Assembly (NCBI GenBank): GCA_964583985.1
Contig: CAZOYD010000003.1
Coordinates: 35,128-99,127, forward strand
Direction of reading: 5' to 3'
Source: an uncultured archaeon
GTDB taxonomy: Archaea; Asgardarchaeota; Lokiarchaeia; Sigyniarchaeales; SOKP01
DNA: 64,000 nt
The notes below the pieces were generated by a model, which ran no database searches, had not been told where the DNA came from, and saw nothing but the letters and a program-made list of their open reading frames with translations. Positions 41,447 to 64,000 of the stretch are shown piece by piece (position 1 is the first letter of the stretch; the number at the start of each line of letters is the position of its first letter). Both the position numbers and the translations under genes were made by a program.

Positions 41447-41710
41447 TTAAAATCCGCCAGCTTGGGTTGCCATTACGGTGATTACATCTTTCTTTGGATG
41501 AATTCCTATTTTAGCGAACTTTAGCTGGTCGGGTAAGACTTTTCCTTTGAAGATAAACTGGATTGCCAAGATTGGGTTAAGTTTATACTCTCGTTGGACG
41601 GTCTTCTTAATATCTGCGATGCTTTGATTTGGATCGACTTCAATTAATTTGATTGCTTGATCTGGTGGAACTCCAGTAAGCCTAAATCTGTATTGAGACA
41701 CTTTTTTCAC
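41447..41710 (-). CDS. Ubiquitin-like (beta-grasp) protein with C-terminal Gly-Gly-Phe
   Basis: EVDPNQSIADIK...QFIFKGKVL ubiquitin-type pattern; ends TQAGGF*. Confidence 0.75.
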   Translation of the reverse strand: MKKVSQYRFRLTGVPPDQAIKLIEVDPNQSIADIKKTVQREYKLNPILAIQFIFKGKVLPDQLKFAKIGIHPKKDVITVMATQAGGF

Positions 41711-45893: not shown

Positions 45894-47570
45894 TTGACCG
45901 AAAATCTACAATTTATGTTAAAACAAGTGTTCTATTATGTTAGTGCTTTTATAAATTCGGAAAAAGTCGATGGAAATCAAATTAGCGAAGAAATTGAAAA
46001 AGCAGTTAAAGAAAAGCTGAATAATTTATCAGATAAGGATATTTTCAGAAAAGATCTCAAGGATCGAATTGTTGAAATAGCGAAAAACACCATAATTGAT
46101 TGTTTATGGGTTCCCTATATAGAACAATTTCCCTATCAAGACGAAAATTCGGATAGAAAATTCAATACGCTGGGATATTTCCAATTTAATGTGGATCATT
46201 ATAAAGATAACCCCTTAGAAAAAGAAAAATTATCACCCATGCTCCTTCAACAGATTCCCTACTTGATCTTAGGTGTTTTAGTAGAACTATCTAAAAAGGA
46301 AGAATATAAATCTGTGTTTTTGGATCTTGAAAGCCCTCTTTACATATTTGCTACATCCAACGAAAGCAAACCCGTAAACATTCAATGGACATCAGAAAAT
46401 ATCGAAAAATATAAAAAAGTAATTTCCTATTGGACAGTGATATACTCTGGTCAGTGGGAAGATTATTCTGATGATCTTTATGATCGAAGAATTCAAAACA
46501 ATCTTTCTAATAGGCTTTCTGAGCTGCATTTTATTCATAGAAACTCTGGATTCATCTATATGGCAGAAGAAAACTATGAAAATTTTTTCGAATCTTATAT
46601 GATGAAATTTGTGATTGAACCTACTCCTAAAATGAGGGCAGTTCAATTTTCATTAAGATCTATTAATGAATCATTAGATCTCTTATTTTTAAAAACCCAA
46701 ACAGGTGTTTTTGAGAATTTAGACTATATTGAAGAAAAGATAAAGAATTTGCGATTATTACGTGGGCTGATACAGACTCGGCTAAGTATTATTTATAATG
46801 AACTTGATTATAATAGAAGAGAGCACTACACAACTGTACTAAAACATCTTTTAAACGAATTTGATATCAACGGAATTGTTGAAAGAATTAAAACTAAATT
46901 TGAAACAATTTATGAAGCGATTCAGGATTTATATCAAAAACAAAACGAACAAAATCAAAAGAGAACTGAAAAAGGGTTAAACCTTCTCAATCTACTCTTT
47001 GGAGCTGGAATTCTAGCCGACTTAGCGGGTGTCATAATGGTAGCTTTTACATTACAAGAAGGAGCTCTTCCAACAGTTTTATTGAATAGCATTATAGGTC
47101 TTATAATTATCATAATATTGGGTACAACTGTTAGTTATTACATATATTCTCGAATTATGATAAATAAAAAAAATATTCAGATAGCAGTAGATGCAATAAT
47201 TGATGATAAACAAGGAAATATCATATTAATAAAACGCAAGTATCCGCCATATAAAGATTACTACGCCTTACCTGGTGGTGCCGTGGAAAAAGGAGAGACT
47301 CAAAAACAAGCAGTCATAAGAGAAATCAAGGAAGAAACAAATTTAGATATAGAAATTGTTGACAAAATCGGAGTCTATGACAGACCAGGAAGAGATCCAA
47401 GGGGAGATGTTCACTCCACTGTCTATAAATGCCGTATTATAGGTGGAAAAGACAAAATTAAAAGTGGAGATGACAGTAAGGATGTATTCGTAATTTCTTT
47501 TAAAGAGTTGAAGAATATAAAATTAGCATTTGATCATAAGGAAATGCTCAAAGCTGCGGGTTATATCTAA
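45894..47570 (+). CDS. CorA-like cytoplasmic/2TM domain fused to an ADP-ribose pyrophosphatase-type Nudix hydrolase
   Basis: Long stalk-like helix and two TM helices, then Nudix box GGAVEKGETQKQAVIREIKEETNL, RDPRG and LAFDH. Confidence 0.7.
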   Translation: MTENLQFMLKQVFYYVSAFINSEKVDGNQISEEIEKAVKEKLNNLSDKDIFRKDLKDRIVEIAKNTIIDCLWVPYIEQFPYQDENSDRKFNTLGYFQFNVDHYKDNPLEKEKLSPMLLQQIPYLILGVLVELSKKEEYKSVFLDLESPLYIFATSNESKPVNIQWTSENIEKYKKVISYWTVIYSGQWEDYSDDLYDRRIQNNLSNRLSELHFIHRNSGFIYMAEENYENFFESYMMKFVIEPTPKMRAVQFSLRSINESLDLLFLKTQTGVFENLDYIEEKIKNLRLLRGLIQTRLSIIYNELDYNRREHYTTVLKHLLNEFDINGIVERIKTKFETIYEAIQDLYQKQNEQNQKRTEKGLNLLNLLFGAGILADLAGVIMVAFTLQEGALPTVLLNSIIGLIIIIILGTTVSYYIYSRIMINKKNIQIAVDAIIDDKQGNIILIKRKYPPYKDYYALPGGAVEKGETQKQAVIREIKEETNLDIEIVDKIGVYDRPGRDPRGDVHSTVYKCRIIGGKDKIKSGDDSKDVFVISFKELKNIKLAFDHKEMLKAAGYI

Positions 47571-51877: not shown

Positions 51878-53152
51878 ATGTCAGCAACAGAAAAATCGGG
51901 AAAAACACAACATAATAAGATGTTAAATGCCACCCAAGGGTTAAAAAACATAATGGGAAGGCATTTTTTAGCTATCGAGCAAGCATATCGAGATGGAAAG
52001 CCTACTGCATGGGCAACCTCTGGAAGCCCCGTAGAAATGCTTTATACGATGGATGTGCAACCCATGCTTCCTGAAAATTCGGCTACCGTCTCAGCCGCTC
52101 AAAAATATTCGCAAAACTTTATTGAATTAGCTGAAGCTGAGGGATATTCCTATGATCTCTGCTCCTATTTCAAAACAAACGTGGGTGCCGTGTTAAGCAA
52201 CGCAGGAATGGCTGAAGGTGGAACGCGAAAGCCAACATTCATGCTATCAACTGACGTCATTTGTGATACTCATGTGGATTGGTTTCAAGTTCAAGCAGAA
52301 AAATTTAACGTTCCTCATTATAGCATTGACGTTCCTCACGTCGTAAGCAATACTACTAATCGCCAATATAATTATTTTAAAAAATATGTCACGGAACAAC
52401 TCTATGAATTCATCGAGTTCATTCAAGAAGTCACTGGACATGAGTATAATGAAGAAAAAGCAAAACAAGTATCTGAAAATTCATGGAACTTAAGTAAAGT
52501 ATGGCAGGACATCTATGAGTTGAGAAAATGCATTCCTTGTCCTATTTCAACTCGAGATACATTCGGTGGATTATTTCCCCTTTTTACAATGCCTGGATTG
52601 AAGGAACCTATCAAATTATACAAGAGAATGTATAAAGAGGCAAAGGAAAGAGTTGATAATGGAGTTGGGGCGTTGGAGAAAGAGGATTTTAGGCTTATGT
52701 TCGAAGGCATACCTTTTTGGTACAATTTGAAATACTTCGGACAACTTGAGCGATGGAATGCCATAATTGTATATGAACCTTATACATATGCTTTCAGCAA
52801 ATACATGAATCCAAAAGTGACCAAGGAAATGGTACTAAACAAACCCATTGAAGCAATGTCAGAATTAATGTTAAGTTTTTGGTATGTTTACGATTTAGAA
52901 ACCCGCATCAAGAAATTTGAGGAAACAGTAAAAGATTGGAGCATTGATGGGGTATTACTTCATAACAACTTATCATGTCGCCCGAATTCTTGTGGAATGT
53001 ACGATTTAAAGCGCCACTTGATGGATGATTATGATATACCTTGCCTTATCATCGATGCCGATATGAATGATCCCCGGAAGCTAAATGAAACCCAAACACT
53101 CAATCAGATTGAAAGCTTTATTGAGATCTTGCGACAGAGGAAAAAAGCTTAA
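51878..53152 (+). CDS. 2-hydroxyacyl-CoA dehydratase / benzoyl-CoA reductase family subunit (HGD-D, alpha/BzdO-like)
   Basis: PEN, DLCSY, ICD, SCRP and D.DM.DPR motifs; GGAGG RBS upstream. Confidence 0.85.
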   Translation: MSATEKSGKTQHNKMLNATQGLKNIMGRHFLAIEQAYRDGKPTAWATSGSPVEMLYTMDVQPMLPENSATVSAAQKYSQNFIELAEAEGYSYDLCSYFKTNVGAVLSNAGMAEGGTRKPTFMLSTDVICDTHVDWFQVQAEKFNVPHYSIDVPHVVSNTTNRQYNYFKKYVTEQLYEFIEFIQEVTGHEYNEEKAKQVSENSWNLSKVWQDIYELRKCIPCPISTRDTFGGLFPLFTMPGLKEPIKLYKRMYKEAKERVDNGVGALEKEDFRLMFEGIPFWYNLKYFGQLERWNAIIVYEPYTYAFSKYMNPKVTKEMVLNKPIEAMSELMLSFWYVYDLETRIKKFEETVKDWSIDGVLLHNNLSCRPNSCGMYDLKRHLMDDYDIPCLIIDADMNDPRKLNETQTLNQIESFIEILRQRKKA

Positions 53153-53189
53153 TATACAAATATGAGCATACATCAGGTTGAAGTTATAA

Positions 53190-53236
53190 AAAGGTAAATT
53201 CAGAGTCCGTTTCTAATGAAAATTCCTTTGAAAAAA
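53190..53236 (+). repeat. Dispersed direct repeat, copy 1 (30-bp core plus 17-bp extension)
   Basis: AAAGGTAAATTCAGAGTCCGTTTCTAATGA-AAATTCCTTTGAAAAAA. Confidence 0.9.
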
Positions 53237-53274
53237 TAATACATAAATTTCGGAATAAAGGGGAAGGATCATTT

Positions 53275-53805
53275 TTGGTATTTCTAGAAGGTCTATCGAT
53301 GTATCCATTATTTCAACCAAGTTCTCGAGTTCCGGTAAAACTCATGCCCAAGGGGACTGAATATGAAATGGGTGATATTATCGTGTTCAAAGGTTTTGAT
53401 TCCTATATCATCCATGTAGTTATAGATAGCTACGTTTATAAAGGTGTGACTTACTATGTTACAGGCGGATTAAATCAAGAATTTGATGAGCCAATAAGTG
53501 AAATTATTTTAGGATTTTTAGTAGATATAATTGACAAAATAGATGAAAATCCTGATCAAAATCCTGATCAAATAATAAATGATTATCTGGCAAAATATTA
53601 TGAAAGAAGGAAGCCAGTAGAACATTCTTTTAGTGATGCTTTAATTGAAATTGTCAAAAATGATATTATTCTCAATATAATAGAAGGGAATAAAGAAAAA
53701 TTTGAAAATGTTAGTCAACCTGTAATGAATAAATTAATCATGTTTTTCAAAGATTTTTTTATAGATGGATTCCATAAATACAAAAACATTGAAGTAAGCG
53801 ATTAA
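53275..53805 (+). CDS. Degenerate signal peptidase I (S26/Sec11-like) domain protein, probably a 5'-truncated fragment
   Basis: GLSMYP, GDIIVF, IIHVV and YYVTGGLN resemble S26 motifs. The frame stays open upstream through repeat copy 1 with no ATG. Confidence 0.45.
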   Translation: MVFLEGLSMYPLFQPSSRVPVKLMPKGTEYEMGDIIVFKGFDSYIIHVVIDSYVYKGVTYYVTGGLNQEFDEPISEIILGFLVDIIDKIDENPDQNPDQIINDYLAKYYERRKPVEHSFSDALIEIVKNDIILNIIEGNKEKFENVSQPVMNKLIMFFKDFFIDGFHKYKNIEVSD

Positions 53806-53944
53806 AAGAGCTTTATTTTATTTAATCTCGTATTTCAATTTATTTTCTCCCTCCCCCGTGGTGCCCCCTCCTGAAGAATAGATTATAACTTTAGAAACTA
53901 ATTCTAACAGCCACATCGCTAATTTTATGATAAAGTTGGATTTT

Positions 53945-54244
53945 CTAAACTCTATTTTTCCAATAACCTGGCTTTCTTTTCTGATGTGCTACGGCAATGA
54001 TTACTATTTTATCTTCTTTTTTCTCGAATTTATAATATAAAGAGAAAGGAAATCTCTTGGTATTAAATTTACGAATATTTTTCTTATAGTGAGACCATCT
54101 TTCTGGAGCTCGTACTATCTCCTGAAGTGACTTCTCTATTTCTTCTAAAAAATCGAATCCTAATCCTGATGCCTGTTGATTATAATATTGAGCAGAATAA
54201 TTCAATTCTTCTTCTGCTTCTAACAAAAAAGTGATTTCTGTCAT
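53945..54244 (-). CDS. Type II toxin, RelE/ParE family
   Basis: AEEEL...YY...GLG.DF, RFPFSLYY and IIAVAHQKRKPGYW motifs. Confidence 0.9.
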   Translation of the reverse strand: MTEITFLLEAEEELNYSAQYYNQQASGLGFDFLEEIEKSLQEIVRAPERWSHYKKNIRKFNTKRFPFSLYYKFEKKEDKIVIIAVAHQKRKPGYWKNRV

Positions 54245-54486
54245 TTCAGATTGGTCCTTGCGTCCTTTAGTACGTCATCCGCAGGTTTATCTGATACTTT
54301 TTTTTGTTTAAATTGAGAATATCTAGATTCAGCTTCTTTAATCCATAACTCATCGGCATTTTCCTCTTCTGAGTCCTCATCTAAACTCTGGAGTAATTGT
54401 CGAATTAATAACGCACGCTCTTCATTTGAAAGTTCTAATGCTTTTTTTTCAATTTCTCTAATATCTGATGTCATATCAATCCACAT
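54241..54486 (-). CDS. Addiction-module antitoxin (unstable antitoxin, TIGR02574-like)
   Basis: ALELS.EERA.L...LL.SLD...W..EAE.R pattern; ATGA overlap with the toxin. Confidence 0.85.
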   Translation of the reverse strand: MWIDMTSDIREIEKKALELSNEERALLIRQLLQSLDEDSEEENADELWIKEAESRYSQFKQKKVSDKPADDVLKDARTNLK

Positions 54487-54738
54487 CTGGTAACTTATTT
54501 TTGCACTATATTATTAATAGAATATGAAAAAATAAATGTAATGCTAAACTTGTAATTCTGTTATTATGAATTTTCAATATTTCTTTCTTATACCCATTTC
54601 TTTCAAATTGAATGGTTTATGGAATAATTTGAATTCAAATCGTTTAAGTTTTTAAGCTCTTCTTTTTCCTCCGTTTTAAGAGACACAAGGTTCGAGCCTT
54701 TTTAAATTTTGTCCCAATTTCCTTTGAAATTGGGTTGA

Positions 54739-54785
54739 AAAGGTAAATTCAGCGTCTGATTCCAATGAAAATTCCTTTGAAAAAA
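54739..54785 (+). repeat. Dispersed direct repeat, copy 2
   Basis: AAAGGTAAATTCAGCGTCTGATTCCAATGA-AAATTCCTTTGAAAAAA; 43/47 identical to copy 1. Confidence 0.9.
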
Positions 54786-54874
54786 CGAAGAAAAATCAGG
54801 AATGATTATTATAATCAATTATTGAAAAAATTTTCCATATGTATCATTGATTAAAGTATCAATGACGAATTTTA

Positions 54875-55165
54875 CTAAAGTTTGAGATTGAGTCTTCGAC
54901 TTCCATGAATAACAGAAATAATTTCTATATGTTCATTTTTAACCAAATAAATGATGCGATAATTTTTATAAAGGACTTCTCTCAAATTAGGATCATCATA
55001 TTCTGGGATCCTTCTCCCAAATTTAGGAAATTGTTGTAAATGACTTACCATTTCATAAATTTGTTTTACTAAAATTTGGGCATACTTTGGAGAATCTTTT
55101 GAGATATAATTCGCAATATCGTCTAATTCCTCAAGAGCATTGTTAGTCCATTTTATTTCAACCAT
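54875..55165 (-). CDS. Type II toxin, RelE/ParE family
   Basis: WT..A..EL..IA.YI..DS, FP..GR.IPE, LRE, YRIIY and VIHGSR motifs. Confidence 0.9.
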   Translation of the reverse strand: MVEIKWTNNALEELDDIANYISKDSPKYAQILVKQIYEMVSHLQQFPKFGRRIPEYDDPNLREVLYKNYRIIYLVKNEHIEIISVIHGSRRLNLKL

Positions 55166-55353
55166 TTTGCTAAACGCTCTTTCGCTTCTTCATGTGTGAA
55201 TAATCTTCCTTCCTCAGAATCTTTTAAACCCTTCTGTATTTTTTGTCTTACATATATTGCTTCAATTATGTCCTCCATGCTCACATCATTAGGAAGAGTT
55301 TTTATCATTTCTATAATATTTTCCTTTTCTGTCGCCACGAGCATTACCTTCAT
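55153..55353 (-). CDS. Antitoxin partner of the RelE/ParE toxin
   Basis: LP.DVS.EDI...IY.R.KI.KGL.D.EEGR..THEE.K.R..KW; overlaps the toxin start. Confidence 0.85.
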   Translation of the reverse strand: MKVMLVATEKENIIEMIKTLPNDVSMEDIIEAIYVRQKIQKGLKDSEEGRLFTHEEAKERLAKWLK

Positions 55354-55555
55354 TTAATTTAAAGAACCTATTAGATATATAATCTCGATCTCTATAAATT
55401 TTTTGGTCTTCTTATAATGACAGATAGAAGAAGAGGAGAGAATATATATGGTCATACAATCACGTTATCTTTAATTTTGCTTTAAAATCTCATTAAGGAA
55501 GAGGAAAAGCTAAAATTCTAAATTTTTCATTAAAATATATTGAATTTTAGGTTGG

Positions 55556-55585
55556 AAAGGTAAATTCAGCGTCTAATTTCAATGA
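55556..55585 (+). repeat. Dispersed direct repeat, copy 3
   Basis: AAAGGTAAATTCAGCGTCTAATTTCAATGA, followed by a degenerate extension TTCTTCTGAGAAAA. Confidence 0.9.
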
Positions 55586-55659
55586 TTCTTCTGAGAAAAA
55601 TTATATAATTTTACATTAAAATACTTCCGAGGGAAAAGTATAAAAGAATAAATGACAAA

Positions 55660-56226
55660 TTGTCATTTATAAGTAGTGAGCTAATTGATATAGAAGGTGT
55701 AAATAATCTGTGGATAAAAAGAAATTATGAAAAATGTAGTGGATGCCGAAGGTGTGAGATTGCGTGTTCTCTCTATCATGAAGGAAAAATTTGGCCGGAA
55801 GCTTCGAGGGTCAGAGTTTTCATGTTTGTTCCAGGAGTTGAGATACCCCATCTCTGCTTTCAATGTAATGATTACCCGTGTGTTGAGGCATGTCCCGAGG
55901 AAGCTCTCTCAGTTAACGTACATACAGGAGCTGTAATCACTGATAAATCGAAATGCACCGCATGTGGAACCTGTATTAATGCATGTCCTGGACGAGTCCC
56001 GCATTTACACCCTCAAAACGATTACATAGTGATTTGCGATTTATGTGGTGGGAACCCGAAATGTGTAGTGGCTTGTCAGGAAGGTAAGTGGGATGCTTTG
56101 AATCTCTTAAAGGGTATAGATGTAGAAACGGAAAAAACTCCTGCTAAAATCCCTAAGAAACTCGCATATGAAACTGCCAGAATACTATTGGGTGAAAAAA
56201 CAACTGAAGAGGTGTATGAATGGTGA
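55660..56226 (+). CDS. Polyferredoxin (4x[4Fe-4S]) small subunit, WOR5S-like
   Basis: CSGCRRCEIAC, CFQC.DYPCVEACP, CTACGTCINACP and CDLCGGNPKCV..C. Confidence 0.88.
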   Translation: MSFISSELIDIEGVNNLWIKRNYEKCSGCRRCEIACSLYHEGKIWPEASRVRVFMFVPGVEIPHLCFQCNDYPCVEACPEEALSVNVHTGAVITDKSKCTACGTCINACPGRVPHLHPQNDYIVICDLCGGNPKCVVACQEGKWDALNLLKGIDVETEKTPAKIPKKLAYETARILLGEKTTEEVYEW

Positions 56227-58097
56227 ATGGTTTTGCGGGGAAATTTCTGGAAATAGATCTGACAAATAAGAATATTAAAGAAATTACATTTTCAGATAAA
56301 ATTCTTCAGGATTACATGGGAGGAAGGGGTTTGGGAGTAAAGATATTGTGGGATCGGCTTGGAAATAAGTGGGAGACGATTGATCCTCTAGGTCCTGAAA
56401 ATATTTTACTCATGCTTACTGGTCCTTTAACGGGTTATTTTCTTGGTGCGAGAATTTGCGTGACTGGAAAATCCCCACAAGGTAATGGAATTGTAGGTTC
56501 AACAGTCGCGGGAGAATTTGGTGTGGAATTGAAATGTGCAGGATATGATGGAATAATTTTTACAGGAAAGGCTGAAAAACCGAGTTACGTATTTATTTGC
56601 GACGATCACGTGGAGATTAAAGATGCTTCATACATATGGGGAAAAACTAGCAGAGAGTCTTTGCGTTATCTCGTAAAACAATCGATTAACGACATCAAAA
56701 AGATTCATCCTAATTATGGGGAGTTTAAGGAACCTTCGGTTCTTTACATTGGTCCTGCTGGAGAAAATAAATCCAGAGTAGCAGCAGTGGAAGCAAAATA
56801 TGCACACGCTGCTGGTTACGGAGGATACGGTGGCGTGATGGGCTCTAAAAACTTAAAAGCAGTGGTTGTAAAAGGTTTTAATTCTTTACCAGACGTAATG
56901 GATCAGGATAAAATGCTCGAGCTATCACAGGAATTTTCAGATAATTGTTTTAGAATAGAATTTTTTAGACGTTGGGGTACTGGATCGGGAGGATATACAT
57001 TTGGAGCTGATTCAAGTTCAGAACCAGTTAGAAATTGGCAAGAAGAATGGCATGATGAGAAAAGTTATAAAGGGGAAGAATTCGACAAATTTTGGGTAAA
57101 AAAATACTGGGGAGATTATGGTTGTCCTGTTACGTGCCTAAAATTGGCAGTGTTACGAGATGGAAAGTACGCTGGAGCAATCTGTGATAATCCCGATTAC
57201 GAGCTTGAGGCTTTCCTGGGGGCAAATTTGGGCATTTTTTCACCAGAACAGAACATTTATCTCTCGTATATCATCGAAGAATTAGGATTTTGTGGTATTC
57301 AAGGTGGCGCAATTTTGGGTTTTACTGGAGAATTATTCCAAAGAGGCATCCTTTCAAAAGAAGATTTAGGAGGGATTAATCTTGAATGGGGAAATGTTGA
57401 TGCATTTGCAGAATTAACCAGAAAAATTGCGTTTAGAGAAGGTATTGGGGATGTACTAACAGAAGGTATATATCGGGCGGCTTTGAAACTTGAAGAAATG
57501 AAAAAGACTGAAGTTCTCAAATATGCAGTTCAGCTCAAAGGCATGGCAATCGGAGCTCACGGCCTTAAAAGCGGTAAGGATATGGTTACAACAACTTCAA
57601 TTGGATATAGCGTATCAGTTCAAGCAGGAGACCATACATCGTCGGCTTCTCTTCCTATTGATGGAGATGGAAGTGAATTATATTCAATTCTTAGTGATTC
57701 TGGAATATATTGTTTCTTTACCACCTTTACCTTAGAGTTTGATCAAATTGCATGTTTCTATCAAGCAGTTACAGGTTGGGAATTACCAAAAGAAAGCTGG
57801 TTCAGCGAAAAAGGGTTAAGAATTTTACAATTACAGAGAGCTGTATCGCTGCTTGGAGGACCGGATGCTGAATGGAGATCAAAGCAAGATGATAGCCTAC
57901 CTTCAAGATTTTGGGAACCTTTACCATCGGGACCATATAAAGGGGAATCAATAGATAAAAATGAATTCGAGAAATTAAAATCTGAATATTACGCAGCAGT
58001 GGGGTGGAATGAAGAAGGTGTACCCACCTCTGAAATATTGCAAAAGCTGGATTTAAAAGATGTTGAATTGAAGCTTAAAAAAGAAGGTTTGTTATAA
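56220..58097 (+). CDS. Tungsten-containing aldehyde:ferredoxin oxidoreductase family protein, WOR5-like
   Basis: GGRGLG, DPLGPEN, KSP, AGYDG, HAAGYGGYGGVMGSKNLKA, PDYE and EYY...GWNEEGVP motifs. Confidence 0.88.
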   Translation: MVNGFAGKFLEIDLTNKNIKEITFSDKILQDYMGGRGLGVKILWDRLGNKWETIDPLGPENILLMLTGPLTGYFLGARICVTGKSPQGNGIVGSTVAGEFGVELKCAGYDGIIFTGKAEKPSYVFICDDHVEIKDASYIWGKTSRESLRYLVKQSINDIKKIHPNYGEFKEPSVLYIGPAGENKSRVAAVEAKYAHAAGYGGYGGVMGSKNLKAVVVKGFNSLPDVMDQDKMLELSQEFSDNCFRIEFFRRWGTGSGGYTFGADSSSEPVRNWQEEWHDEKSYKGEEFDKFWVKKYWGDYGCPVTCLKLAVLRDGKYAGAICDNPDYELEAFLGANLGIFSPEQNIYLSYIIEELGFCGIQGGAILGFTGELFQRGILSKEDLGGINLEWGNVDAFAELTRKIAFREGIGDVLTEGIYRAALKLEEMKKTEVLKYAVQLKGMAIGAHGLKSGKDMVTTTSIGYSVSVQAGDHTSSASLPIDGDGSELYSILSDSGIYCFFTTFTLEFDQIACFYQAVTGWELPKESWFSEKGLRILQLQRAVSLLGGPDAEWRSKQDDSLPSRFWEPLPSGPYKGESIDKNEFEKLKSEYYAAVGWNEEGVPTSEILQKLDLKDVELKLKKEGLL

Positions 58098-58101
58098 TTG
58101 C

Positions 58102-58131
58102 AAAGGTAAATTCAGAGTCTGATTTCAATGA
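58102..58131 (+). repeat. Dispersed direct repeat, copy 4
   Basis: AAAGGTAAATTCAGAGTCTGATTTCAATGA, 4 bp after the oxidoreductase stop codon. Confidence 0.9.
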
Positions 58132-58290
58132 AAAAAAAAAAATAAAACCGACTATATATGACAAATAATTTTGGTGTGGATAGATGAAAAAGAAATTAAT
58201 AGAAAAGTATGATGTAAAACCTGATCAAAAAGCCTTAGAGACCAATTGGAGTTACTCAAATTGGAGATGCTGGAGGTGTTGGATGACATA

Positions 58291-59628
58291 ATGGATGATT
58301 ATTATGATATAGTGATTATTGGATCAGGTTTGGGTGGATTAACAGCAGCAAGTTTACTCTCCCGCAAGGGATTTAAAACTCTTGTGGTGGAGAGTAGAAG
58401 TCGGATAGGAGGGAGATTTTCCACTTTTGAGTATGAAGGGTTCAAATTACCTACTGGTGCGATTCTTATCCCAGATGGGTGGGTGATAAAATTACTTGAG
58501 GAGATGGGAATCAGGACTGATAATTTAAGACCAATAACACGAGTTTATTATAGAATTGACGGTAAAAGTTATGACATCCCATCTGAAATAGGAGTACCAA
58601 AGGCGCTTGATATAATGGATAAGCTTGAAAGAAAAGATGCTGAAGAGAAGAAACGTCCAACGATACCTGTCGAATTGAGTAAGATTATGCGTGGTTATTA
58701 TAAAAAAATGCGAGGAATAAATCAAGAAGAAATTATAACTGTGCGAGATTGGCTTCTTCAATATACTGAGAATGAAAAAGTGCACGATGCTTTTGATACT
58801 CTCTGTACAGGATTGATGATGGCTCATTCTTGGGAGCTACCTGTTTCAAAATTTTTCCTCTTCCAAGAAATGACTAAATTTTACATATCGCCTGACGGAA
58901 ACCTCAGCATAGCACAAGAACTTGCTAGAATAGTTGAGAAAACTGGTGCTGTATGGCCTAATTCCCCTGCGAGGAAAATAATCATCAAAGAGGGAAAAGC
59001 TACAAGTGTAATTGTTGAAAAAGCAGGAAAACAAATTGAAATAAAATGCAAGATGGTTATTAGTAATATAGGGGCTAAATCGACGGTAAATCTGGCAGGA
59101 AAAGAAAATTTTGATAATGAATATCTTGAAAAGATGCGTATAAAACTCCGACCAAGCCCCTGTATACTGGTTCTAATCGCAAGCGATAAGCCTCTGTGCT
59201 TGGAAGGATTACATGATGGGTTGGAAATAATCATGGGATCACGAAGAATTAAAACTGTTATTCCTATTAGTAATATCTGTCCGGAACTTGTTCCTCCAGG
59301 CCACCATCTTATTTATACTTCAGCTAAGTCCGAATCAACCCTCCATCCTATGGATATAAAATACGAAATGCAACAAGTTAAAAGTGATATTAAGGAATTT
59401 TTTCCAGATTTCGAAAAACACGGTCGAATTTTAAAAATGAGAGCATGTGGTATTATCAATGAATGGCCTGAAGGTCGAACTTGGCTTGGTTATGGTATGC
59501 CATTAGAGACGCCGATATCTAATCTATTTAACGTAGGAGATTCATGCATCGCTCCAGGTCTTATAGGAACTCCTGGTTCTGTAGAAAGTGGTTACCGGGT
59601 GGTTGATAGTGTTGAAAAATTATTATAA
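58291..59628 (+). CDS. FAD-dependent oxidoreductase, phytoene desaturase-like
   Basis: IIGSGLGGL, E...IGGR, TGA and NLFNVGD motifs. Likely start is ATG 58291, after GGAGGTG. Confidence 0.85.
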   Translation: MDDYYDIVIIGSGLGGLTAASLLSRKGFKTLVVESRSRIGGRFSTFEYEGFKLPTGAILIPDGWVIKLLEEMGIRTDNLRPITRVYYRIDGKSYDIPSEIGVPKALDIMDKLERKDAEEKKRPTIPVELSKIMRGYYKKMRGINQEEIITVRDWLLQYTENEKVHDAFDTLCTGLMMAHSWELPVSKFFLFQEMTKFYISPDGNLSIAQELARIVEKTGAVWPNSPARKIIIKEGKATSVIVEKAGKQIEIKCKMVISNIGAKSTVNLAGKENFDNEYLEKMRIKLRPSPCILVLIASDKPLCLEGLHDGLEIIMGSRRIKTVIPISNICPELVPPGHHLIYTSAKSESTLHPMDIKYEMQQVKSDIKEFFPDFEKHGRILKMRACGIINEWPEGRTWLGYGMPLETPISNLFNVGDSCIAPGLIGTPGSVESGYRVVDSVEKLL

Positions 59629-59659
59629 TCCAATTTGAAGAAATAAAAAATTTGATTTT

Positions 59660-60784
59660 ATGGACATTAGTGATCTTAAGATAGGAAGAGAGGGAACATT
59701 TATACCCCCATTTAAAAGTAATATCGCCACAGTTAAAAGTTATGAAAATGAGGGGTATGATTCCATATTTTTTGCCGATCATATCTTAAATTGGATACCG
59801 GAATCTATATGGACTCCAGATATTACTGATCTTGCTAAAGTTTATCCCAGTCCCCATCTAATATATGATGTTTTTACTATGATGACTGTTGCTGCCTTAA
59901 ACACAAAAAAGATTTACCTCGGAACAGGAGTAACCGAAGCTTTTAGAAGGAATCCCGCGGTACTTGCGCAAACCTTTATGACTTTAGATGAATTATCCAG
60001 AGGAAGGGCAATATTGGGAATAGGAGCAGGCGAAAAAGAAAATACCATTCCCTACGGAATTAAATGGGAGAAGCCTGTAAGTAGATTAGAAGAAGCCGTT
60101 ATCATAATTAAAAAATTATGGGAAAGTGATGAAAAAGTAAATTATGATGGAAAAATTTGGAAGTTAGAAAATGCTCTCCTCAGATTAAATCCTTTTAAAA
60201 AAGGAAAATTTCCTCCAATATGGATTGCCGCTCGTGGTAACAGAATGCTAGAAATAACAGGCAGATTAGGTGATGGCTGGTTACCCATATTTTTAAAACC
60301 AGAAATATATAAAGAAAAACTAAGAATTCTCCGAAAATACACGCAAAAAGCAGATAGAAATATAGATGAAATTACTCCTGCGGTTATTTTAGGAGTTATC
60401 ACCGATGAGGATAGGAAAGAAGTCGATAAAATGCTCAAAAATCCAATTACCAAAAATAACTTAATTCCATTATATAATGAAGATTTTAAACCATATGGAG
60501 TATCACATCCTCTTGGAGAAAATATTGATGGAACTTTAGAATTTATACCTACACATTATGATAAAGACTCATTGCTGCAAATACTTGAAAAGATCCCTAA
60601 TAAAATGTGTCATGATTTTTACTTGAATGGTAGTCCTGATGAAATTATCGGTCAAATTGAAAATTATAGCAAAATTGGAGCAAAACACATAATTCTATTT
60701 AATGTATCAATATTATGTGGTTCTAAATATATTCCACGTTCAAATAAATGCATGAAAAAAATAATTTCATATTTCAAAAATTAA
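59660..60784 (+). CDS. LLM-class (luciferase-like, probably F420-dependent) oxidoreductase
   Basis: DSIFFADH, GTGVT, RNPAVLAQ, GRAILGIGAGE and PPIWIAA...GDGWLP motifs. Confidence 0.9.
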   Translation: MDISDLKIGREGTFIPPFKSNIATVKSYENEGYDSIFFADHILNWIPESIWTPDITDLAKVYPSPHLIYDVFTMMTVAALNTKKIYLGTGVTEAFRRNPAVLAQTFMTLDELSRGRAILGIGAGEKENTIPYGIKWEKPVSRLEEAVIIIKKLWESDEKVNYDGKIWKLENALLRLNPFKKGKFPPIWIAARGNRMLEITGRLGDGWLPIFLKPEIYKEKLRILRKYTQKADRNIDEITPAVILGVITDEDRKEVDKMLKNPITKNNLIPLYNEDFKPYGVSHPLGENIDGTLEFIPTHYDKDSLLQILEKIPNKMCHDFYLNGSPDEIIGQIENYSKIGAKHIILFNVSILCGSKYIPRSNKCMKKIISYFKN

Positions 60785-60864
60785 AAAAATAGGGGTTCTT
60801 CTCCAATCTAAAATTCTCTAATAAAAATTATTATCCAATAAAAATATAAGATTATTAGATAAAA

Positions 60865-61794
60865 ATGATAATAAACTCTCAAAAAATTGATGTTCACCAT
60901 CACATTGTACCTAAAGAATATCTTGCAGCTTTAGCCTCAGTAGGTATTAAAAATGCTGTTGGTGAACCATTCCCTCAGTGGGATATTGAAAATACTCTTG
61001 CTTTTATGGATAGGCAAGGGATAGCCATAGCTATTAACTCAATTTCTGCACCAGGTATATATTTTGGAGATAATGATTTTACTCAAAAGTTAGCACGCAA
61101 TTGTAATGAAATCTCTGCTCGTGTGGTGAATGAATACCCAAATCGCTTTGGTGCGTTTGCTATTTTACCTTTACCAAATATAGAGGCATCAATAGTTGAA
61201 TTGGAGCATGCCTTAGATACCTTAAACCTTGATGGGGTGGTTTTCCTTACAAATTTTGGGGGGATATACCTCGGAGATGCTTATTATGATGATCTTTTTT
61301 ATGAATTAAATCGCAGGAAAGCTGTAGTTTTTGTACATCCAAGTGTGCCCGCTTTAGATACATTACCCATGATAATAAAACCCGCAGTTTTAGAATTCGT
61401 TTTTGATACCACAAGGGCAATTGTTAATCTTATACATAGAGGAGCAACAAAACGCTTTCCGGATATACGTTTTATATTCTCACATGGAGGAGGAACTGTT
61501 CCCTTTATAACTTGGAGAATTACTTTTGGAAATCAAAAGATAATTAATCAGTTAAAACGCTTTTATTATGATACAGCAGTGTCAGCAACCCCCTATTCTT
61601 TAAGTTCCTTGATGAGTTTAGTGGAACCAACGCAAGTATTATATGGGAGTGACTATCCCTTTTTGCCGGAAAGGGTTGTAAAACTAATGAATGAAGGTCT
61701 TCAAAATTATAATTTTGAAAGAGAAGTCCTCTCGAAAATTGTCCAACAAAATGCTGTTACTTTATTTCCAAGGTTTAAGGAAATAATGTTTTGA
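60865..61794 (+). CDS. Amidohydrolase-family decarboxylase (ACMSD/6-methylsalicylate decarboxylase-like)
   Basis: IDVHHH, FVHP, FDTTRA, SHGGG, YYDTA and YGSDYPF motifs. Confidence 0.88.
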   Translation: MIINSQKIDVHHHIVPKEYLAALASVGIKNAVGEPFPQWDIENTLAFMDRQGIAIAINSISAPGIYFGDNDFTQKLARNCNEISARVVNEYPNRFGAFAILPLPNIEASIVELEHALDTLNLDGVVFLTNFGGIYLGDAYYDDLFYELNRRKAVVFVHPSVPALDTLPMIIKPAVLEFVFDTTRAIVNLIHRGATKRFPDIRFIFSHGGGTVPFITWRITFGNQKIINQLKRFYYDTAVSATPYSLSSLMSLVEPTQVLYGSDYPFLPERVVKLMNEGLQNYNFEREVLSKIVQQNAVTLFPRFKEIMF

Positions 61795-61900
61795 CAATTT
61801 TAAAAAGATTCTTAAGATTCTTTTAATCATTAAGCCTTTAGTACAAATTGGAAACTATTCTATAAAAATAACAAAATAATTAAAATAATCTTAATTTTTT

Positions 61901-63637
61901 TTATAGTTCAGGGTCTTTAATTCCAAACGGTATCATCTCATCAAAATAAGAGAGGATCATTCCAAGTTCAGGTTCTTTAAGCTCAAAATTAATGAGATCA
62001 ATCACGCTCTTTACGGTAAGGATATCATTTAAATAGGAAATCCTTAAATCACCAATACCAGAATCAAGGACAAGAATTTTGTCTTTTCCTTTAGTATTAT
62101 CCCAAGGATTCCAATTAGTTAAACCTTCTCCGTTTGGATTTCCCGTTCTTGCAAAATTGGCTAGATAATTCATGCACAAATCTGTTAGTTTTTCTCGACC
62201 AAGTTGATTACGCTTCGTGTGTGTTTTACCAATCAACATGAATATAGAACTATTACCCATCCCTAAAAAAAACGGAATTTCTGCTGCGTGATGGGCACCT
62301 AAGTTTCGTCCCATCCCTTTAGGCAGAACACTCATTCCATCTTTATCTGGACTTCCCCAATCAAACCGGTAAGCATAAATGGGTACGTTAGTCTTTGAAT
62401 TCATCTTGGATACTAAGGAATCAAGCCCACTCACGCGCCATAGTAGGGATCTATACCTCCATACTAAATCATATTTTCTGGTATTCTTGGGAGGATCTTT
62501 TCTAAAATTACCAAAAAGCTTCAATTCATCTTTCGTGCAACCGATAATTAGTGGTACCTTATTTGCCCAATCTCCAGTCGATAATATATCATATCCTTCT
62601 TTTGGTATTACCATACCATCAGTAAAGATATTTCGCCATTGAGCCATTCCAAAATCCATTTTGGGGATACATTTCAAAATTTTAAACGCCGATTTTGAAC
62701 GAAGATACTCATCAACATCTTTTCCCGACATTTTATCTAGAATTCGCTTCGCTTCTTCTTGGTTTTTTGCTTTATGATCCTTTATGAGGAGACTAATAAG
62801 AAGATCGACACTTTGAGATTCTGCTAATTTAGTACTTGAAATGAGAGATAATCCGCTTTCAGCGATAGCATGATGGAAGAGTCCTTTTGCGGATGGAGAA
62901 ATCAGGAGTGAGAAAACGTTAAAAGCACCTCCTGACTCACCTGCGATTGTAATATTATTAGGATCCCCTCCAAATGCTTCTACATTGCCATGTACCCATT
63001 CTAAGGCTTTTATCAGATCAAGAGTACCAAAATTTCCACTTTTATCTTTAGGAGAACCAGTATTTGTAACAGCAGGATGTATAAACCAACCCATTGCTCC
63101 AAGACGGTAATTTACTGAGATATAAAGTAAGTTAGATTTCTCAACAACCGCATTACCATAATAAGCAACCTCCGCAGATGAACCAATTGAATTTCCTCCC
63201 CCATGGATATACAGATAGACTGGTAATTTTGTCTTTGGAGTCTTGGGACGCCATATATTAAGATAAAGACAATCTTCTGAACCAATTGGACCTAAAAAAA
63301 GCATGACTTGTGCTGCAGAATTTCCAAATTTTTTTGTTTTACGTATTCCGTTCCACGGGATTGGATCTAACGGTGCTTTCCAACGAAGTGAACCAGTTGG
63401 AGGAATCGCATATGGAATCCCCTTCCAGCACCAAGATCCTTTATCAGAAAAACCTGATACTAAACCATACTTCGTTTGGACAAGAGCATTATCATTCCAT
63501 GAACCTAGTTTAAAGGTAGTACTAGATGGCTCTAACGCGCCAATATGACTAATGTAGGAAGATACAATCCTTTTAATCAAATTGATTAATCTAATAAAAG
63601 GAGCAAACAAATAAGCTAGCTTTATTATTAAACTCAT
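61901..63637 (-). CDS. Type-B carboxylesterase (p-nitrobenzyl esterase-like)
   Basis: GIPYA.PP.G.LRWK.P, SEDCLYLNIW, HGGG, GESGG nucleophile and HAAE. Confidence 0.92.
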   Translation of the reverse strand: MSLIIKLAYLFAPFIRLINLIKRIVSSYISHIGALEPSSTTFKLGSWNDNALVQTKYGLVSGFSDKGSWCWKGIPYAIPPTGSLRWKAPLDPIPWNGIRKTKKFGNSAAQVMLFLGPIGSEDCLYLNIWRPKTPKTKLPVYLYIHGGGNSIGSSAEVAYYGNAVVEKSNLLYISVNYRLGAMGWFIHPAVTNTGSPKDKSGNFGTLDLIKALEWVHGNVEAFGGDPNNITIAGESGGAFNVFSLLISPSAKGLFHHAIAESGLSLISSTKLAESQSVDLLISLLIKDHKAKNQEEAKRILDKMSGKDVDEYLRSKSAFKILKCIPKMDFGMAQWRNIFTDGMVIPKEGYDILSTGDWANKVPLIIGCTKDELKLFGNFRKDPPKNTRKYDLVWRYRSLLWRVSGLDSLVSKMNSKTNVPIYAYRFDWGSPDKDGMSVLPKGMGRNLGAHHAAEIPFFLGMGNSSIFMLIGKTHTKRNQLGREKLTDLCMNYLANFARTGNPNGEGLTNWNPWDNTKGKDKILVLDSGIGDLRISYLNDILTVKSVIDLINFELKEPELGMILSYFDEMIPFGIKDPEL

Positions 63638-63669
63638 GATTTCAGATCAGAAACATTATTCAAAGCTTT

Positions 63670-63775
63670 AATAATTTATTATGGCGACTAAATTCTTGAG
63701 GATGTATTATTTAAAATGATACTTGATGGATGATTTTGATATCCCTTGTTTTATCGTTGATGGGGATATGAATGA
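63670..63775 (+). pseudogene. Decayed fragment homologous to the 3' region of the dehydratase alpha gene (52964-53070)
   Basis: Hand alignment gives about 84/107 identical bases. Translates NNLLWRLNS*/MYYLK*YLMDDFDIPCFIVDGDMNE versus NNLSCRPNSCGMYDLKRHLMDDYDIPCLIIDADMND. Confidence 0.8.
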
Positions 63776-64000
63776 GCATTTTTACTAAAACCTTTACTTC
63801 ATATTTTCTACCAATTTCATTAATGTTAGACGTTATTAGGATAATTTTTTGAATATTAGCATGTATTCTCGTAATTCTCATGATGGTTTGATCGCTTTCA
63901 ACTTTTGGGTTTGATTACATGACAGTAATTTATTAATATTTTTTAAATCATATACTTTTTTTTAAGGCTTAAACTAATATATTTAATTTTCAATTTATTA

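Follow-up and report, generated by a model that had tools for sequence, protein, structure and literature searches.

A 64,000-nucleotide stretch of DNA from an uncultured Lokiarchaeia archaeon (contig CAZOYD010000003.1, positions 35,128 to 99,127; hereafter the window) ends in an array of small gene modules separated by copies of a short repeat, and the question raised by this locus is what the repeat is and how genes came to be stacked between its copies. A preliminary description, made from the sequence alone, had proposed that the copies are recombination sites or target duplications of an integron-like gene-capture system. We compared the locus with its source genome (G000, 3.8 Mb) and with genomes of relatives (other G numbers; L numbers denote fetched loci). 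On this basis, the repeat is very probably the double-stranded attachment (att) site of integrative elements of ~9-12 kb, and the window by the same reading carries a tandem stack of their enzyme-less derivatives, resembling cis-mobilizable elements (CIMEs).

The repeat is real. Its 14-bp start occurs exactly at 53190, 54739, 55556 and 58102, always on the + strand and with 1549, 817 and 2546 bp between successive copies, as first described. Two further matches in the window need two mismatches, which is the chance level (2.04 expected). When G000 was scanned with a site profile built from 221 site variants of relatives, the sole other match above 8 bits was a weak one of 15 bits on contig C15, and the reversed genome gave no match above 8 bits with the same profile. 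G000 has no other full-strength site, and none had initially been noticed in the first 53 kb of the window. The repeat length, initially put at 30-47 bp, needed qualification: copies 1 and 2 are indeed alike over 48 nt (92% identity), but aligned copies of relatives give a consensus of ~46 bp with a nearly invariant 35-bp core and one variable central base; the 3′ tail is partly decayed in copy 3 and wholly decayed in copy 4. The four copies, with their profile scores, are:

53189..53234, + strand: site copy 1, a 46-bp attachment-like site (58 bits) that leads in frame into an orphan protein tip
54738..54783, + strand: site copy 2, the best preserved and of attR type (71 bits), with a promoter remnant on its left
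55555..55600, + strand: site copy 3 (45 bits), 3′ tail decayed
58101..58146, + strand: site copy 4 (38 bits), 3′ tail gone after ~58133; it starts 4 bp past the stop codon of an aldehyde:ferredoxin oxidoreductase (AOR) gene

Copy 4 contains the inner dyad that had been noticed, and the reported gaps between stop codons and repeats (37 bp past an hgdB-type gene for copy 1, 4 bp past the AOR gene for copy 4) are correct; the 4-bp gap is common to most other genomes with the same module. A 15-bp left half-site at C79:2124 (-) and the weak full-length site at C15:647 (+) in G000 are possible decayed junctions.

Which enzyme could act on this site? A co-occurring recombinase had been recommended as a check, and in relatives the site is tied to a tyrosine recombinase operon. 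At L110, this operon encodes a ribbon-helix-helix/winged helix-turn-helix (RHH/wHTH)-type protein of 172-182 aa with a weak NikA-like match, followed by a tyrosine recombinase of 302 aa, and it is transcribed away from the site. Loci were therefore fetched by recombinase and not by repeat. Of the 19 close operons among them (at least 61% identity), 12 have a site at a distance of exactly 79 bp, and 2 more have a variant of it 78-79 bp away. None of 8 distant operons (at most 53% identity) had a site, nor did any of 30 XerA loci have one nearby. The recombinase matches PF00589 (E 1e-22), and its catalytic residues R151, R245, H268, Y278 and K175 are at least 98% conserved in 111 homologues. It is neither IntI (TIGR02249, 53.7 bits against a cut-off of 265) nor XerA, for which its score is far below the cut-off. 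It carries no extra domain, and its R-to-HxxR distance is 91, compared with 93 in XerA. The gene was found in 23 of 133 genomes of one Promethearchaeia (Loki) family, and within the class it shows the same family restriction as the site.

G000 itself has neither this integrase nor its regulator nor the AAA gene of the corresponding element (see below), and this agrees with the suggestion that a recombinase would act in trans. Its one tyrosine recombinase is XerA (235 bits against a cut-off of 220), and no match to serine recombinases (PF00239) was found in it. The host xerA gene (contig C46, L173) has a cdc6/orc1-like gene on one side and a thioredoxin reductase-like gene on the other. The window nevertheless retains a trace of the integrase operon: the 75 bp to the left of copy 2 match the operon promoter region at 71 positions, and a promoter-type left flank remnant of this kind is present at 72 of 283 sites. 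This upstream 'long form' was initially taken as part of the repeat, a reading that was rejected once it proved to be the integrase-operon promoter. A scan for sigma-70 promoters and terminators, which is not suited to archaea, stayed at chance level. Variant sites with a different 5-base core occur at L263:2340 and 13138 (-), L269:445 and L280:5409; the two in L263 adjoin ~70%-identical integrases and possibly represent a second specificity class. At L238, upstream of the regulator, a 45%-identical integrase relative adjoins a tRNA-like sequence and not this site, which suggests that other members of the integrase family use tRNA targets.

Recombination at the repeat should be visible in its flanks, which we compared for 283 distinct sites. 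Thirty-six pairs of sites shared the left flank only and 63 the right flank only, while not a single pair shared both. Moreover, rare variants at positions 0-7 tracked the left flank (9/30 versus 1/72), whereas variants at positions 36-45 (65/192 versus 21/161), and also those at positions 19 and 24, tracked the right flank, so that the exchange maps to between positions 4 and 19. Element-linked site variants are most variable at positions 12-16 of the core, and half-sites end just past position 14 (10 cases versus 0 in the control, a difference that is partly built into the threshold). The core is otherwise almost invariant across hundreds of non-coding copies. Judged from these patterns, flanks have been exchanged at the site.

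The strongest test, which started from cargo and not from the repeat, concerned the ferredoxin-AOR (Fd-AOR) pair, the third module of the window. This pair is 85-91% identical at the nucleotide level in 19 other genomes belonging to three genera, where its neighbours fall into 17 left groups and 20 right groups. The homology ends at the site, and a site or its remnant was present past the stop codon in 13 of the 19 close homologues; an outgroup pair (68% identity) had no site. Indeed, all five modules of the window recur elsewhere with other neighbours. The order of modules among relatives is not invariant.

In the genus that was searched first, 30 of 35 genomes contained the site. Across the phylum, it turned up in 92 of the 133 family genomes and in 3 of 266 other Asgard genomes, and the reversed-pattern control gave no match. 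These three genomes may be misbinned. A wide spread, indicated by matches titled Hodarchaeota, Hermodarchaeota and Borrarchaeota, was rejected because the phylum search returned only these three genomes outside the family. No exact site was found in IMG/VR viral contigs. Within the family, arrays of copies are found at a large number of unrelated loci, including five separate ones in the single-contig genome G106, and the modules between the copies are shuffled, a point that had been proposed as a check in relatives. Adjacent sites were co-oriented in 138 of 138 pairs, at a median spacing of 1.36 kb. Cargo and neighbouring genes face either way about equally relative to the site, and orientation and distance of the site to genes are random, which speaks against the fixed position expected of a transcription-factor site. 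The notion that cargo is stacked at one locus held only in part. An array does occupy the hgdB-type locus here, but arrays lie at many unrelated loci, and this locus is not a fixed platform, since only one of its 25 occurrences (that of G000) has a full site behind the gene and one other has a half-site.

On longer contigs, the site bounds units of ~9-12 kb that are sometimes arranged in tandem, with intact tandems in L261, L263 and L286. Their order is: site, a start-less tip, leucine-rich repeat (LRR) or small immunity-like genes, cargo, an AAA/D5-type primase-helicase gene, a G-rich motif, the integrase, the RHH/wHTH regulator, the promoter and again a site. The conserved G-rich motif of ~90 bp (L110:5927-6010 and equivalents), which is absent from G000, is possibly a replication origin or terminator. 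It was also considered as the other end of the element, and this was rejected because it is internal, between the integrase and AAA genes. No conjugation genes were noticed in L261-L287, where no family-level search for them was made.

A second property of the site concerns coding: of 290 copies, 268 have one particular reading frame (VNSES motif) open. In that frame, 24 sites stay open for at least 100 further codons, compared with 3 and 0 in the other two frames, and 8 sites lie inside a long upstream frame, the upstream proteins being homologous to one another. These belong to a family of giant frames of up to 20,600 codons that occurs in 40 of the 133 family genomes, though not in G000, and shows the same family restriction as the site; frames of 11,000-20,600 codons are found at G132:C35, G016:C74, G111:C3 and G124:C13. 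Five giant-gene loci share the codon position of the site but not the tip that follows it, and one of these sites is in a frame of 11,803 codons. No Pfam match was found over 2,932 aa of one giant protein, nor a usable ESM Atlas match for part of it. Typically, a tip starts with an S26-peptidase-like domain of ~140 aa or with a ubiquitin-like one, beyond which the sequences diverge; small or LRR genes come next. On the - strand of the window, positions 41447-41710 encode a stand-alone ubiquitin-like protein of 87 aa that ends in GG plus one residue and shares 44% identity with the ubiquitin-like domain at the start of some element-borne tips (L263). This likeness suggests that the tips recruited, or mimic, a host modifier.

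With the element as reference, the window could be read from left to right. The genes, assigned with Pfam and NCBIfam, and the remaining features are:

51878..53152, + strand: host gene for a 2-hydroxyacyl-CoA dehydratase subunit (HGD-D), hgdB-type, the left boundary of the array
53191..53805, + strand: start-less frame of 204 codons opened by copy 1, with an S26 signal-peptidase-like pre-tip domain and the 3′ part of another gene
53945..54486, - strand: cargo of module 1, a ParE toxin (53945-54244) and an addiction-module antitoxin (54241-54486)
54663..54737, - strand: promoter/ribosome-binding remnant of the RHH-integrase operon, identical to L110 in 71/75 bp; the operon itself is deleted
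54875..55353, - strand: cargo of module 2, a ParE/RelE toxin (54875-55165) and a small antitoxin (55153-55353)
55660..58097, + strand: cargo of module 3, a 4Fe-4S protein and an aldehyde:ferredoxin oxidoreductase (AOR family, AFOR_N/AFOR_C)
58139..61827, + strand: module 4, an FAD oxidoreductase, a luciferase-like monooxygenase and an amidohydrolase; its right-hand site is lost here
61893..63674, - strand: module 5, a carboxylesterase (61901-63637); both sites are lost here
63669..63775, + strand: decayed duplicate of the 3′ region of the hgdB-type gene (79% to 52963-53070)

The module contents agree with those first described, including the peptidase fragment (S26/S24-like), the two toxin-antitoxin (TA) pairs and the further enzyme set past copy 4. 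In the start-less frame, the pre-tip domain (TIGR02228, E 3.8e-9, below the cut-off) is 85% identical to the element tips of L097 and L258 over 97 aa, and the 3′ part has 95% nucleotide identity to L182:9435-9765, a gene that follows tips elsewhere. From these matches, we read the frame as an orphan tip that a deletion joined to part of a gene downstream. Module 1 accordingly keeps both ends of the element, with a tip start at its left and the operon promoter at its right, but none of its machinery; for modules 3-5, such a two-ended, integrase-less structure was not shown. The TA pair of module 1 recurs behind a site in G116, and that of module 2 sits between two sites in L082 with different neighbours. 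Past copy 4 the array continues for two further modules, up to ~63,775, and the junction sites belonging to these have been lost. Module 4 is 91% identical in L090, where two sites bound it, and the carboxylesterase of module 5 is flanked by sites in L184, L158 and L174. In G011, the same joint between carboxylesterase and hgdB fragment continues via a 37-bp spacer into a site. The simplest inference from these sequences is that a circular form or a tandem duplicate of the array once existed and included part of the neighbouring host gene. On the att-site reading, the window array comprises five stacked modules that are partly decayed and have no enzyme of their own. Beyond it, positions 63781-63942, fused directly to the hgdB fragment, are 92% identical to part of a membrane-protein gene (C34 35779-35940), and the contig ends at window position 64000. 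No tRNA was found in the window. Upstream of the array, at 45894-47570 (+), a gene divergent from a nadA-like one encodes a protein of 558 aa that has two hydrophobic segments and, at its C terminus, a Nudix-like motif.

How, then, would the arrays arise? We infer that the integrase recombines two copies of the site, so that integration would regenerate a site at each end and a newcomer would land in the previous junction; because of this, tandem arrays would be co-oriented. Derivatives that retain their ends after loss of the integrase, such as module 1, as well as cargo that gained a site, would move as cassettes, with the enzyme supplied in trans by a visiting element. Integration into a site within a giant gene would replace the C-terminal tip of the protein and leave the old one as an orphan. 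A more far-reaching version holds that one tyrosine integrase and one site form an active system, which both swaps the toxic tips of proteins of 10,000-20,000 residues in frame, in a programmed way, and, without attC or IntI, captures and shuffles metabolic, defence and TA cassettes across genera in an integron-like manner; we propose this tentatively, as nearly an even call that leans slightly against it. Several observations weigh against the att-site interpretation. Neither a recombination product nor a circle nor an empty site was observed, and the interpretation gives no account of how ordinary cargo, such as the Fd-AOR pair, first gained a site. Five of the 19 close operons have no site, most site-bearing genomes have no integrase (23 versus 92 of 133) and G000 is one of them, and many giant genes lack a site at the relevant codon. 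The toxin identity of the tips is weak (a deaminase match of E 0.0014 in 2 of 25 tips), one opposite-facing pair of sites was found in L351 after the 138 pairs had been counted, and related metagenome-assembled genomes were sampled, which makes the counts not independent.

Conceivably, the repeat is an att site by origin only, and arrays like that of the window are today inert remnants whose modules are reshuffled by nothing but homologous recombination or deletion between the near-identical 46-bp repeats. This may describe the window array at present: a cognate integrase is missing from G000, copies 3 and 4 have decayed, two junctions no longer have a site, and the right end is pieced together from gene fragments. 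As a general explanation we consider it unlikely, because modules at 85-91% identity have moved between genera to loci that are unrelated, their breakpoint being the site, the core has stayed almost invariant in hundreds of non-coding copies, and site variants switch their flank allegiance within a narrow interval. Very unlikely, in our judgement, is a dif-like site recombined by the host XerA, in the manner of integrative mobile elements exploiting Xer (IMEX) or the pdif modules of Acinetobacter, with the recombinase of the element being incidental. XerA is the only tyrosine recombinase of G000, it is present in nearly all genomes of the genus, and it would explain arrays without an enzyme of their own. 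However, the XerA loci have no site in their vicinity, G106 carries its arrays at five places, and the site holds a fixed position beside a different recombinase. The 11-6-11 layout of dif had been reported as absent and is so: there is no clean palindrome, and a 6-bp spacer, like odd spacers of 5-7 bp, yields only about 5/11 arm matches. Moreover, pdif sites alternate in direction, which these do not.

A true integron-type system, in which folded single-stranded cassette sites are inserted at a primary site beside the integrase, is highly improbable, even though the layout of a divergent recombinase, an adjacent site and a co-oriented array with TA cassettes matches, and integrons have been reported as enriched in Asgard genomes (PMC9668308). 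As had been noted for the window, attC ends (RYYYAAC...GTTRRRY) are missing, here from all 283 sites (0/283). Neither strand folds better than shuffled sequences (z -0.7 to +0.2), the recombinase remains far from IntI in score and has no additional domain, cargo genes face both ways, and the integrase sits in a tandem element that bears replication genes. The term 'integron-like' thus stands for the layout, but not for attC, IntI or a hairpin. Just as improbable is a tiny non-autonomous transposon, comparable to miniature inverted-repeat transposable elements (MITEs) or repetitive extragenic palindromic (REP) sequences, or a transcription-factor operator. The repeat is short and multi-copy, has an imperfect dyad and is often near gene ends, as either would be. 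Yet target duplications did not exceed the control level, which also removes target duplications as an identity of the copies and gives no sign of insertion sequence or MITE ends; co-orientation is strict, flanks are never both shared, placement relative to genes is random and includes positions inside reading frames, Rfam gave no match, and G000 has only 4-5 copies.

Read as the att site of integrative elements, the repeat provides a concrete route for the flow of accessory genes in the closest prokaryotic relatives of eukaryotes, one to which attC-based screens are blind. About 70% of the family genomes carry the site, metabolic modules such as the AOR pair travel with it between genera, and a testable pair of enzyme and site can be named. 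If the tips are toxins, polymorphic toxins would diversify by site-specific recombination at a coding att site. No published description of the site or the system was found in the literature searched, outside which most subscription journals lie.

Among known systems, integrons and clusters of attC sites lacking integron-integrases (CALINs), archaeal ones included (PMC9668308), share the recombinase divergent from an adjacent site, the small co-oriented modules with TA pairs and the frequency of enzyme-less arrays. They differ in that here attC, a single-strand fold and IntI are all lacking, the sites are near-identical, cargo takes both orientations and the enzyme resides on a mobile element. 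The nearest solved relative of the integrase is Thermoplasma XerA (PDB 5HXY; E 1.5e-14), which has the same fold and catalytic residues. Unlike archaeal XerA/dif, the integrase is only ~24% identical to the host XerA, and there are many sites per genome instead of one at the terminus. Other Asgard elements resemble ours in linking mobile elements to giant proteins or tyrosine integrases: in the parts of the reports available to us (PMC8813620, PMC11529989), Aloposons have twin giant genes and integrate at tRNAs, and Atabeyarchaeia elements have other motifs, such as an 11-bp one for Yucahu-i, whereas neither this site nor cassette arrays are described in those parts. Polymorphic toxin systems (PMC3482391) offer the same succession of a very large protein, a conserved peptidase-like domain, a variable C-terminal tip, small or LRR genes and orphan tips downstream. 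The review of these systems mentions recombinases only as neighbours of polyimmunity loci (PMC3482391), whereas here the exchange of tips, which are putative toxins, coincides with an in-frame att site of a recombinase.

By analogy, the best fit is provided by CIMEs and the tandem accretion of integrative and conjugative or mobilizable elements (PMC5704250; ICESt1-related), in which integrase-less derivatives keep their att ends, newcomers enter the previous junction and composite islands are co-oriented. As in that scheme, the same att site bounds an autonomous integrase-bearing element, and module 1 keeps both ends without an integrase. The Asgard site differs from those of CIMEs in being ~46 bp long and in lying at many loci per genome, not at the end of a tRNA or housekeeping gene, and its host is an Asgard archaeon. 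Two traits are unusual against the CIME scheme: the modules are very small (mostly 0.7-3.4 kb), numerous and spread over many loci, and the att site doubles as coding sequence inside giant genes.

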